DNA of 64,000 bases from Eledone cirrhosa (lineage: Eukaryota). This document shows, one piece after another, positions 30,722 through 62,355 of this stretch; positions within the stretch are counted from its first letter, which is position 1; every line of letters starts with the position of its first letter. The stretch lies in contig OZ024764.1 in the NCBI GenBank assembly GCA_964016885.1, forward strand, positions 17,050,001 to 17,114,000. The letters run 5' to 3'. The position numbers and the translations under genes were made by a program. The notes under the pieces were generated by a model, which was not told the origin of the DNA, made no database searches, and saw nothing but the letters and a program-made list of their open reading frames with translations.

Positions 30722-31049
30722 ATGTCCAAGTCTCCAGTTGTGGCCAGTTTACAGGTACAGCTACTGTTGGTCATCCTTGCAACAGATCTGAAAGTTACCT
30801 TACAGAATGAATGTCTTGGAGGTTATCAATATTTAGGTATCAACAACATCTATAGCTACCTTCTGCCCTCTTCGCCAGACAAAACTTTGCAAAGTTCTAA
30901 TATATCTGAATGTTCATTGTCTGCTTTTAATAATGATTTCAGATATTTCTGTTACAACAGTACCGCCAATCTTTGTAAAGTGTTCTCATCTACTAGTATA
31001 CTAACAATTACAGAGGTACACAACAGCAACAAGGCTTGCTACTTTAGAT
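30722..31049 (+). CDS. Copy A exon 1: signal peptide plus PAN/Apple-like domain
   Basis: [23 protein letters not shown]...ECSLSA...[14 protein letters not shown]...KACYFR; phase-1 donor gtaagt. Confidence 0.87.
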
Positions 31050-34000
31050 GTAAGTAAAATATTGCTATTATTAACACTTTAGCATTTACATTACTCTATA
31101 TATACTATTGTATTTTCACAGTAAAGGCTTTACCTCACATAATATCTCACATAGCATTTACATTACTCTATATATACTATTGTATTTTCACAGTAAAGGC
31201 TTTACCTCACATAATATCTCACATAGCATTTACATTACTCTATATATACTATTGTATTTTCACAGTAAAGGCTTTACCTCACATAACATTTACATTACTC
31301 TATATATACTATTGTATTTTCACAGTAAAGGTTTTACCTCACATAATATCTCACATAACATTTATATTACTCTATATATACTATTGTATTTTCACAGTAA
31401 AGGCTTTACCTCACATAACATTTACATTACTCTATATATACTATTGTATTTTCACAGTAAAGTCTTTACCTCACATAATATCTCACATAACATTTACATT
31501 ACTCTATATATACTATTGTATTTTCACAGTAAAGGCTTTACCTCACATAATATCGAATCTATGAGATTTTGAAAGTATTTCTTTTGAGAACAATACCTTA
31601 ACATCAGTGTGAGTGGCCAGTTACAGCAAAAAGTAGAGAATTCTGGCCGGTTTGAACATTAAAGGGTTAATACAATTATAATATTATTCTTATATATTTA
31701 TATTCCAGACACTGAATGGATAAAAGTTTATGAGTTAAGTATGAGGGCTGGTTCCCAGGTCTATAATTCCTTTGTCAATAATGGAAACCATACAACATGG
31801 AAGGTGGACAAATGTAATGGACAGTTTTGTCCTAAATTCTTCAGACATCCGATCCTTGACATCTGGGGAGATCTCCAAATTGAGGAGGTATGTATGTATG
31901 TATGTATGTATGTATGTATGTATGTATGTGTGTGTGTGTGTATATATATATATACATATATATGATTGTGCAGGAGATAAGGCTGAGATGGTATGGACAT
32001 GTGATGCGCATGGAGGATGAACGATTGGTAAAGAAGTGCCAGGAAGTCCCAGTGGAGGGAAGACGTGGAAGAGGAAGACCACAAAAAACATGGGCGGAGG
32101 TGGTGAGAGCAGACCTCAGATGGCTGAAACTCACAGAGGAGATGACGAAGGACCGTGACAAGTGGAGAGATGCTGTGCTGAATAGGACCTGTCCCACCCT
32201 TGCAAGCAGGGAAAAGTGGACGTAAAATGATGATGATGATGATGATGATGAAATGTGTATCTATATGCATATATTATATATGTATATATTATATATGTAT
32301 ATATTATATATATATATAAATATATATGTATATATATATATATGTATAAATATATATAAATATATATGTATATATATATATATACAGATATATATAAATA
32401 TATATATATGTATATATATATATAAATATATATATATGTATATATATATATAAATATATATATATGTATATATATATATAAATATATATATATGTATAAA
32501 TATATATAAATATATATGTATATTTATATATATACAGATATATATAAATATATATATATGTATATATATATATAAATATATATATATTGTTATTTTGTTA
32601 GGTTAAAGTGGTGATTTACAAAAACAAAACAGCTGTGGTAAACATGGTTTTTGATGGACATGATACAACAATAACAAGTTGGTTTTCTAAGAAACATCTG
32701 AAAAGTTCCCCATGGACAGATACAGACACAGTTGATTTTTTTTCACTTGAGGGATACAGGTACATCACTGTTATCATATCTTATTGTAATGATTCCTCTA
32801 TACACTGTAAAGTGGTCATGTAGGTGTTACGACAAAAAGCACCCAGCCCACACTGTAAAGTGGTCATGTAGGTGTCACAACAAAAAGCACCCAGTCCACA
32901 CTGTAAAGTGGTCATGTAGGTGTCACAACAAAAAGCACCCAGTCCACACTGTAAAGTGGTCATGTAGGTGTCACAACAAAAAGTACCCAGTCCACACTGT
33001 AAAGTGGTCATGTAGGTGTCACAACAAAAAGCACCCAGTCCACACTGTAAAGTGGTCATGTAGGTGTCACAACAAAAAGCACCCAGTCCACACTGTAAAG
33101 TGGTCATGTAGGTGTCACAACAAAAAGTACCCAGTCCACACTGTAAAGTGGTCATGTAGGTGTCACAACAAAAAGCACCCAGTCCACACTGTAAAGTGGT
33201 CATGTAGGTGTCACAACAAAAAGCACCCAGTCCACACTGTAAGGTGGTCATGTAGGTGTCACAACAAAAAGCACCCAGTCCACACTGTAAAGTGGTCATG
33301 TAGGTGTCACAACAAAAAGCACCCAGTCCACACTGTAAAGTGGTCATGTAGGTGTCACAACAAAAAGCACCCAGTCCACACTGTAAAATGGTCATGTAGG
33401 TGTCACAACAAAAAGCACCCAGTCCACACTGTAAAGTGGTCATGTAGGTGTCACAACAAAAAGCACCCAGTCCACACTGTAAGGTGGTCATGTAGGTGTC
33501 ACAACAAAAAGCACCCAGTCCACACTGTAAAGTGGTCATGTAGGTGTCACAACAAAAAGCACCCAGTCCACACTGTAAAGTGGTCATGTAGGTGTCACAA
33601 CAAAAAGCACCCAGTCCACACTGTAAAGTGGTCATGTAGGTGTCACAACAAAAAGTACCCAGTTCACACTGTAAAGTGGTCATGTAGGTGTCACAACAAA
33701 AAGCACCCAGTCCACACTGTAAAGTGGTCATGTAGGTGTCACAACAAAAAGTACCCAGTCCACACTGTAAAGTGGTCATGTAGGTGTCACAACAAAAAGC
33801 ACCCAGTCCACACTGTAAAGTGGTCATGTAGGTGTCACAACAAAAAGCACCCAGTCCACACTGTAAAGTGGTCATGTAGGTGTCACAACAAAAAGTACCC
33901 AGTCCACACTGTAAAGTGATCATGTAGGTATCACAACAAAAAGCACCCAGTCCACACTGTAAAGTGGTCATGTAGGTGTCATGACAAAAAGTACCCAGTC

Positions 34001-60532: not shown

Positions 60533-60719
60533 GGTAGATAGTTATATAGATAGACAGACAGTTAGATAGATAGAATTAGAAGAGATCAATATTGTATTGA
60601 ATGGTTATTGTGGTTTATTGATTGGTAATACTTGACTTATAAATCATTGGTGGTGGCCATCTGGAAAGGATGGACGATAACAACAACAACAATGGTAGAA
60701 GTGGAGATGATGTAGTTGG

Positions 60720-62355
60720 TTAAGTTGTTTTGAGACGGAGAAATATAGCGAAGGAGTCAGCTGTCCCATGACCTGGCAATAACAACAATAACAACAGTAA
60801 CAACAACAACAACAACAGTAAGTGACCACCACTACTACTACTACCACTACTATTACTACTACTACTACTACCACTACCACTACCACTACAACCACTACTA
60901 CTACTACTATTACTATACTACTACTACTACTACTACTACTACTACAACAACCACTACTACTACTACTACTACTACTACTACACTACTACTACCACTACTA
61001 CTACTATCACCACTACTACAACTATATTTACAGCTTGACACCAGTGACATTACAACATAGACATACATATATATATATACAACATATACAAAATATATAC
61101 TATATATATATATATATATATATATATATATATATATATATATATATTATATACAGTATGTATATATATTATATACAGTATGTATATATATATATATGAA
61201 AACAGGGAGAAAGAGACGATTATTAGGAAGAAAAATATATTTTCCTCTCCACATTTTATTATTATTATTATTATATATATATATATATATATTATGTACA
61301 GTATATATATATATATATATATATATATATATATATATTATGTACAGTATATATATATATATTATATACAGTATGTATATATATATTATATACAGTATGT
61401 ATATATATATTATATACAGTATGTATATATATATTATATACAGTATGTATATATATATTATATACAGTATGTATATATATATTATGTACAGTATATATAT
61501 ATATATATATATATTATATACAGTATGTATATATATATTATATACAGTATATATATATATATATTATATACAGTATGTATATATATATTATATACAGTAT
61601 GTATATATATATTATATACAGTATGTATATATATATTATGTACAGTATATATATATATATATATATATTATATACAGTATGTATATATATATTATATACA
61701 GTATATATATATATATATTATATACAGTATGTATATATATATTATATACAGTATGTATATATATATTATATACAGTATATATATATATATTATGTACAGT
61801 ATATATATATATATATTATATACAGTATGTATATATATATTATATACAGTATATATATATATATATTATATACAGTATGTATATATATATTATATACAGT
61901 ATGTATATATATATTATGTACAGTATATATATATATATATTATATACAGTATGTATATATATATTATGTACAGTATATATATATATATATATATATATAT
62001 ATATATATATATATATATATATATACAGCTTGGCACCAGTGATATCACAATACATTTCTACAGCTGAGTAAACTGGAGCAACATGAAATAAAGTGTCTTG
62101 CTCAAGAACACAACACTAAGCTCAATTGCAAGCCTGATGCTCTAACCACTAAGCCATGTGCCTCCACACACACAGAGTAAAATAAAAGTTGTATTACCTT
62201 TATCCCAAGTAGTTGCTGAAATGTTAGTTGAATAAAATATTACAGGGTAGTGTGGTGAAACTGTCCAATTACAATATGATTTAGCTTCTAGGATAACCAA
62301 CCAACCACGGTCCCTTGCACAAGTAGCCTCATAAGCTATATAGAAACGTCGCCGA
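60720..62355 (-). CDS. Uncharacterised secreted protein, copy C: last two exons (62355-62198 and 60772-60720); 5' exons presumably beyond the right edge
   Basis: [52 protein letters not shown] plus [17 protein letters not shown]; intact splice sites; inverted homologue of copy A exons 4-5. Confidence 0.82.

Follow-up and report, generated by a model that had tools for sequence, protein, structure and literature searches.

Among described systems, the closest to the genes reported here are two families of variable secreted proteins and one group of lectins. Molluscan FREPs, which combine immunoglobulin superfamily (IgSF) and fibrinogen domains, are secreted, built of two modules with the fibrinogen-type one at the C-terminus, and described in PMC13428168 as diversifying by duplication and by allelic and somatic sequence variation. 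The Sp185/333 genes of sea urchins are presented in PMC5103432 as clustered mosaic genes for secreted proteins, with gene conversion proposed and short tandem repeats around the genes. The third group consists of lectins with fibrinogen-related domains (FReD), namely ficolins, tachylectin-5A and intelectins. Here we analyzed a 64,000-nt window of the genome of the octopod Eledone cirrhosa (GCA_964016885.1, contig OZ024764.1, positions 17,050,001 to 17,114,000), which holds part of a tandem cluster of four intact genes, denoted A–D. These genes belong to a real and undescribed multigene family encoding predicted secreted proteins with a PAN/Apple domain and a second, C-terminal domain; the processes at work in it (birth-and-death, conversion and positive selection) are already known, and no paper describing the family was found in the limited literature collection searched. 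By analogy, the octopod family appears to work like the FREPs and Sp185/333 while being a member of neither. Like the FREPs, it comprises predicted secreted proteins of two modules, the C-terminal one probably of fibrinogen type, that have diversified by duplication and sequence variation, but its N-terminal domain is PAN rather than IgSF and its variation clusters in the C-terminal domain. With Sp185/333 it has in common clustering, mosaic structure, proposed conversion and nearby tandem repeats, but its sequence is unrelated, its products are folded two-domain proteins, its clusters lie on different chromosomes, and it includes pseudogenes.

The nearest database proteins are uncharacterized Octopus and Argonauta proteins with automatic names only (O. 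bimaculoides LOC106873068 and LOC106872447, 'Apple domain-containing'; O. sinensis LOC118768577-81), and no paper was found for six of their gene identifiers. These proteins have the same length, architecture and motifs, are 44–58% identical to the genes modeled here, and in many cases apparently lie on one contig per species, which suggests that they are clustered there too. Compared with them, A–D have additional cysteines in PAN and make up a sub-lineage of their own: their best database match is only 44–48% identical, and no close orthologue was found among the proteins of Octopus sinensis, O. bimaculoides, O. vulgaris and Argonauta. Uncharacterized, multi-copy PAN-(EGF)-Fibrinogen_C proteins of corals (Pocillopora, Acropora, Oculina) likewise combine PAN with the same C-terminal domain, but retain EGF and the fibrinogen A subdomain between the two, whereas the octopod proteins join PAN straight to the B-like part. 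The likeness to FReD lectins consists of weak fold similarity, a cysteine pair flanking a G-W strand near the C-terminus, and a fibrinogen N-terminal motif kept by coral and other homologues of the octopod domain; in contrast to these lectins, the octopod proteins carry PAN instead of a collagen or coiled-coil region.

A first-pass annotation, made from the letters of the window, had proposed that A and B share one five-exon layout with internal exons of 179, 158 and 158 nt and open frames, and the spliced gene models bear this out. All junctions are AG/GT, the phases are 1,0,2,1, and there are no internal stops; the coding exons of A (328/179/158/158/53 nt) yield 291 aa and those of B (325/179/158/158/68 nt) 295 aa. 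What had been taken for a cluster of three genes in fact comprises four: gene C, intact, on the minus strand and encoding 285 aa, reaches into the window with exons 4 and 5 and the end of exon 3, and the fourth copy, D, also intact (301 aa), lies about 27 kb beyond C, outside the window. The exons in the window are as follows.

30722..31049, + strand: gene A, coding exon 1; predicted signal peptide and PAN/Apple domain (fold basis: homologue P0007)
31709..31887, + strand: gene A, exon 2; start of the predicted fibrinogen-like domain
32602..32759, + strand: gene A, exon 3; its 3' end carries selected sites 214, 215, 219 and 221
34209..34366, + strand: gene A, exon 4; R-x-F and C-x-x-D-x-G-W motifs, Cys234 and Cys250, selected sites 223, 235, 238 and 249
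35760..35812, + strand: gene A, exon 5; ADSFAIFLR, then stop
41574..41898, + strand: gene B, coding exon 1; predicted signal peptide and PAN
45748..45926, + strand: gene B, exon 2
48109..48266, + strand: gene B, exon 3
49925..50082, + strand: gene B, exon 4
50898..50965, + strand: gene B, exon 5
63914..64000, - strand: gene C, 3' part of exon 3 (last 87 nt); the rest of the gene is outside the window (G000:C25:17119917-17114001)
62198..62355, - strand: gene C, exon 4
60720..60772, - strand: gene C, exon 5, identical to exon 5 of A

The annotated pattern of divergence also held: mature exon 1 and exons 3 and 4 are heavily substituted with the cysteines kept, B retaining 9 of the 9 cysteines and 7 of the 8 tryptophans of A. 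All the motifs that had been listed are present, although the spacing in F.G...WFS is seven residues, not four. An acceptor-like pyrimidine tract followed by AG, 5 nt before the ATG (30700-30721 in A; 41552-41573 in B), was seen in A, B, C, E, F and G, but not in D or H–O, and a non-coding first exon upstream of the ATG is possible on this sequence feature. A search for sequencing runs listed none of RNA; the three that it did list look like genomic DNA from a single sample, with contigs passing from exon 1 into the intron; the exon 1-2 joint is absent from the 15 joints shown in those runs, which perhaps represent the source sample and so give no independent support.

Divergence among the copies is organized in blocks. 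From exon 1 to exon 5, A and B are 73, 90, 60, 59 and 74% identical, and different stretches of A are shared with different copies.

30672..30787, + strand: 5' tract common to A, B (41524-41639) and C; 50 non-coding and 66 coding nt
31659..31866, + strand: A-B tract; identical over the final 50 nt of intron 1, 2 of 129 nt differing over codons 120-162
32552..32718, + strand: A-D tract; 50 nt before exon 3 identical, 2 of 129 nt differing over codons 166-208
34255..35862, + strand: A-C tract; 4 of 162 nt differing over codons 238-291, intron 4 flanks and 3' flank 98-100% identical
45636..45663, + strand: duplicated exon-2 acceptor in intron 1 of B, 86 nt before the real acceptor; its use would lead to a stop

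Over codons 120-162, where B is so close to A, C differs from A at 20 and D at 30 of the 129 nt; over codons 166-208, where D is close, the counts for B and C are 51 and 55. Every A tract extends into 50 nt of flank at 98–100% identity. Upstream of the 5' tract, beyond about 50 nt before the ATG, the DNA is unrelated between copies, and the first ~36 nt of exon 2 hold more A-B differences than the rest of the A-B tract. In trees of exons 1, 2, 3 and 4, the sister of A is B, B, D and C, respectively, and another copy, K, groups with H in the exon 1 and 2 trees and with M in those of exons 3 and 4. Runs of shared sites among copies were significant (p = 0.0002, 5,000 shuffles). Segments of one gene, non-coding DNA included, are thus tied to different paralogues, as in a gene-conversion mosaic; from the sequences, we infer gene conversion or ectopic crossover, two causes that the data do not separate. 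The duplicated acceptor in intron 1 of B is likely a recombination scar.

The blocks that are not shared are old. Between A and B, the proportion of synonymous differences (pS) is 0.46–0.51 in mature exon 1 and exons 3 and 4, but falls to 0.09 in exon 2 and to 0 over the signal peptide; the ratio of nonsynonymous to synonymous rates (dN/dS) in the mature region is 0.68, and the intron flanks next to diverged exons are 51–71% identical. Because synonymous sites diverged too, the diverged exons are old rather than recently accelerated, and recent duplication followed by exon-specific acceleration was rejected, synonymous sites and adjoining intron flanks being equally diverged. An assembly chimera was rejected for A from the assembled sequence: the tracts contain 2–4 differences, the repeats are not of equal length, and some segments are private to A. 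Guidance of tract ends by microsatellites was rejected as well, repeats making up 14% of the window; at 1.1 blocks per kb, they are so dense that the coincidence of tract ends with repeats is uninformative. Among the repeats, a 48-nt minisatellite family occupies intron 3 of A (32802-34083) and, inverted, introns 1 (43436-45526) and 2 (46789-48019) of B, and a 72-nt array is common to intron 1 of A and of B.

These tracts bear directly on the pattern that the first-pass annotation called typical of venom, immune-recognition and gamete-recognition families, a conserved signal peptide preceding a hypervariable mature part; reading the near-identical signal peptide as the venom-family signature is not supported. 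The underlying observation was accurate: the first 66 coding nt of A and B differ at one position, and so do the 50 nt upstream. This near-identity, however, is a short tract limited to A, B and C that includes non-coding DNA. Between A and D, the proportion of nonsynonymous differences (pN) in the signal peptide is 0.25 and pS is 0.56, and the other modeled members have diverged further, so that the family-wide signal-peptide conservation of venom superfamilies is not found here, although another feature of those superfamilies, positive selection in the mature region with cysteines kept, is present. Nor is the signal peptide specially conserved within the cluster, because A is equally alike, intron flanks included, to B over most of exon 2, to D over most of exon 3 and to C over most of exons 4-5. 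Recombination tracts between old copies can mimic the pattern of conserved signal peptide and hypervariable mature region, and therefore the pattern alone is no reason to infer venom.

Residues 10-20 of A–C are strongly hydrophobic (mean 2.43) and later 19-residue stretches reach at most 1.45; a single hydrophobic N-terminus with no second membrane-length stretch fits secreted proteins, as predicted. The annotated PAN/Apple domain is supported by the predicted fold of homologue P0007 (hairpin-loop, helix and five-stranded sheet). The Pfam PAN profile has no match in exon 1 of A or of B; two Octopus homologues, P0232 and P0035, do match PAN_1 (E 9.5e-7 and 7.3e-7), and P0154 and P0159 fall below the cut-off. 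PAN/Apple domains have two or three conserved disulfides. Here, Cys64 and Cys85 occur in 14 of 14 genes, Cys77 and Cys106 are added in A–D, and Cys31 is added in A and B (codon 30812-30814 in A, with a matching codon in B), giving five PAN cysteines in these two copies; judging by the sequence, the odd count may leave one free for a dimer. C lacks Cys145, so that Cys150 is left unpaired. Each copy has 4–6 N-glycosylation sequons, and the net charge of A–D is +3 to +10.

The C-terminal domain of about 180 aa, previously left without a named family, is indeed uncharacterized, but it can be linked, distantly, to the fibrinogen-like superfamily. Predicted on close homologues, it is a compact alpha/beta domain with weak fold similarity to fibrinogen-related lectins over 136–159 residues, and its first strand, in exon 2, lines up with the GGWT strand in a coral homologue. 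The coral PAN-(EGF)-Fibrinogen_C proteins carry the same domain (hhalign probability 100), and coral homologues match the Fibrinogen_C profile only at positions 4-52. The A subdomain motif C..G.Y.I...VYCD...GGGW, present in 41 of 122 non-octopod homologues, was found in 0 of 75 octopod domains. FST.D.DND (calcium) and GGWWY, which are P-subdomain motifs of fibrinogen-related domains, were found in none of 241 domains, with the alternative motifs C..D.GW and R.F.I in 194 and 198 of the same 241. Neither the window exons nor P0007 or P0189 match Pfam Fibrinogen_C. On the predicted folds and these motifs, the domain is probably fibrinogen-like, the A subdomain and the canonical calcium and acetyl motifs having been lost. 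Membership in TLDc was rejected: the fold score is equal, yet a sequence link was not seen, and the fibrinogen link is backed by the upstream motif. Pfam searches with the eight window exons and 20 exon-3 paralogues returned nothing useful, Protein Data Bank sequence searches with three alignments gave no match below E 0.28, and a viral structure library yielded weak matches only (best E 1.4e-3).

The domain is widespread in animals. An exon-3 profile search returned 666 clusters at 50% identity, named carriers including a sponge, corals, an anemone, a gastropod, a bivalve, a starfish, hemichordates and amphioxus. Among the 60 of 150 matches scanned, its partners were PAN, EGF, C-type lectin, SUEL, F5/8, SRCR, TSP1, ZP, VWD and a GPCR, and the pairing with PAN recurs in corals, a starfish, a bivalve, a gastropod and amphioxus-like sequences. 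P0103, a Logan record, and P0049 contain tandem repeats of the complete fibrinogen-A-motif plus domain unit in bacterial-looking architectures (FG-GAP and MopE repeats in P0049), and P0033, P0001, P0063 and P0058, which comprise a hemichordate adhesion GPCR, proteins containing ZP and VWD, and a fusion to Vps62, carry the domain too.

Within the 3.0-Gb E. cirrhosa genome, exon searches identified at least 39 distinct exon-3 loci on 13 contigs, a lower bound that takes in broken copies and perhaps duplicated haplotypes, and the cluster is thus part of a multigene family. We modeled 13 five-exon genes with open frames and one further gene for which exon 5 was not found; exon 4 of gene F was assigned by proximity across a 30-kb gap. 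On C27 (G000:C27:8.19-8.77 Mb, L091-L099), four copies have near-identical exons 1-2 and diverged exons 3-4; one of these, K, resembles H in front and M, on C21, at the back, and has an 8-residue insertion that adds two cysteines. A second, distant cluster (G000:C3:62.25-62.75 Mb, L123-L140 and L143-L154) contains at least 9 exon-3 and at least 11 exon-4 loci, lying in both orientations; the stretches examined there, which span part of the genes, yielded no PAN exon. Degenerate members include one at G000:C3:320.16 Mb (L105), with stop codons in exons 1 and 4, and those at C10:50.55-50.57 Mb (L110-L112), with deletions and loss of the exon-4 cysteines; stops also occur on C28.

The first-pass description of a fast-diversifying family is supported insofar as codon site models point to positively selected sites, the diverged exons themselves being old. 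We used self-written models (GY94, F3x4, one tree per exon, branch lengths rescaled, naive empirical Bayes) on 14–15 genes and 237 codons, omitting residues before A36, exon 5, columns with more than 20% gaps, the distant loci and two genes that are broken. Across all codons, omega was 0.55. Under M2a, 6.5% of codons had omega 4.0, with twice the log-likelihood difference (2dlnL) over M1a at 37.4; M8 against M8a gave 26.0. The statistic was 22.5 without A, C, K and gap-adjacent columns and 22.1 with eight half-exon trees. In 25 neutral simulations with mid-exon recombination, it reached at most 16.4, with 5 of the 25 over the nominal 5% level. Between 41 and 46% of codons had omega about 0.18, about half fell in the neutral class, and excess amino-acid change affected about 5–9%, mostly in residues 211-260, which contain eight of the 11 sites with posterior above 0.8 (within residues 214-249). 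In 46 paralogues from other Octopus species, the 11 sites lie at the 90th entropy percentile (p = 5e-5), and residues 211-260 average 2.16 bits compared to 0.98–1.20 in preceding regions. The signal recurred in the distant C3 cluster (2dlnL 68.7, 14% of codons at omega 7.2), for which 7, 9 and 10 distinct exons were used, one locus being unparsed and one identical copy dropped; the flagged sites fall in the same segments, where exon 3 ends, where exon 4 begins and ahead of the second cysteine, with seven more in exon 2. In single pairwise comparisons, dN was significantly above dS in 0 of 15 pairs.

Other genes and elements were also noted in the window. Upstream of the cluster lies a cytochrome P450 exon (2777-3115, - strand; Pfam p450, E 9e-14), and 8560-8850 (- strand), without a Pfam match, is presumably P450-like too. 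LINE-like retroelement remnants are found upstream of A (21651-22034, + strand) and between B and C (55246-55929, - strand), with zf-RVT below the cut-off (E 0.0099).

With a confidence only slightly better than even, we regard A–D as lectin-like molecules that recognize foreign surfaces. In fibrinogen-like lectins, the P subdomain is the ligand-binding part, and residues 211-260 would be its counterpart: the near-invariant Arg, Asp and Trp and the Cys234-Cys250 pair may form a pocket of which the selected residues are the rim, with PAN as a second binding or oligomerizing surface. The putative ligands would be glycans or proteins on the surfaces of microbes or parasites, encountered at the mucosa or in blood. 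Old duplicates would then be kept for their differing binding segments, and the binding face diversified by positive selection and inter-copy recombination, the segments in between being homogenized or reshuffled by ectopic gene conversion or crossover.

That the proteins are salivary or venom effectors, binding prey proteins or membranes and diversifying against prey targets, appears unlikely. Predicted to be secreted, they are clustered, positively selected and positively charged, and the PAN fold occurs in the leech salivary proteins LAPP and saratin. However, the signal-peptide identity behind the idea is a recombination tract, a mature protein of about 270 aa with two domains is not a short Cys-framed peptide, and PAN is paired with the domain in corals, starfish, bivalve, gastropod and amphioxus-like sequences, most of which groups, to our knowledge, lack salivary venom. 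We consider gamete or mate recognition (spermatophore, oviducal gland or egg coat) under sexual selection or conflict less likely still: positive selection on a secreted protein, the lack of a close Octopus or Argonauta orthologue and the fusion of homologous domains to ZP modules in amphioxus would suit it, but dozens of divergent paralogues in one genome seem better suited to broad ligand coverage than to a single species-specific partner. This analysis holds no specific pointer to venom or gametes. Short family motifs and gene identifiers were not found in the supplements of the O. vulgaris salivary gland (PMC7693380), skin mucus (PMC10138644) and ink (PMC10142993) proteomes, whose peptide-sequence content is unconfirmed, so that this amounts to no evidence. 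A mucus, sucker or matrix protein serving adhesion or carrying odorants or other ligands, with no role in defense and diversified by substrate or tissue, ranks a little lower again: the sequons and the occurrence of the domain in matrix-type proteins with VWD, ZP, TSP1 and EGF modules favor it, but positive selection has repeatedly targeted one set of short segments in two distinct clusters, which is unusual for structural proteins. Relaxed, near-neutral birth-and-death, with the selection signal an artifact of recombination, alignment error or multi-nucleotide changes, is very improbable, for although broken members exist (C3:320.16 Mb, C10:50.55 Mb and C28), about half of the codons are in the neutral class and recombination inflates the test, the signal exceeds all recombination-aware null runs, survives the dropping of mosaics and gap-adjacent columns and recurs in an independent gap-poor cluster, the flagged positions are the most variable ones in other species, and a large fraction of codons is constrained.

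These findings point to a distant link between a widespread, unnamed animal domain and the fibrinogen-like superfamily, indicate the likely ligand-binding segment of that domain, and put forward a specific candidate for a cephalopod family of diversified recognition proteins. A bolder proposal, possible but in our judgment doubtful, is that variable secreted recognition proteins form a germline repertoire peculiar to octopods and matching the FREPs of snails, built on an undescribed, stripped-down fibrinogen-like fold with a new type of pocket (R-x-F, C-x-x-D-x-G-W), the rim of which would have been diversified in several clusters and the segments reshuffled, such that individuals may differ in the repertoire they carry.

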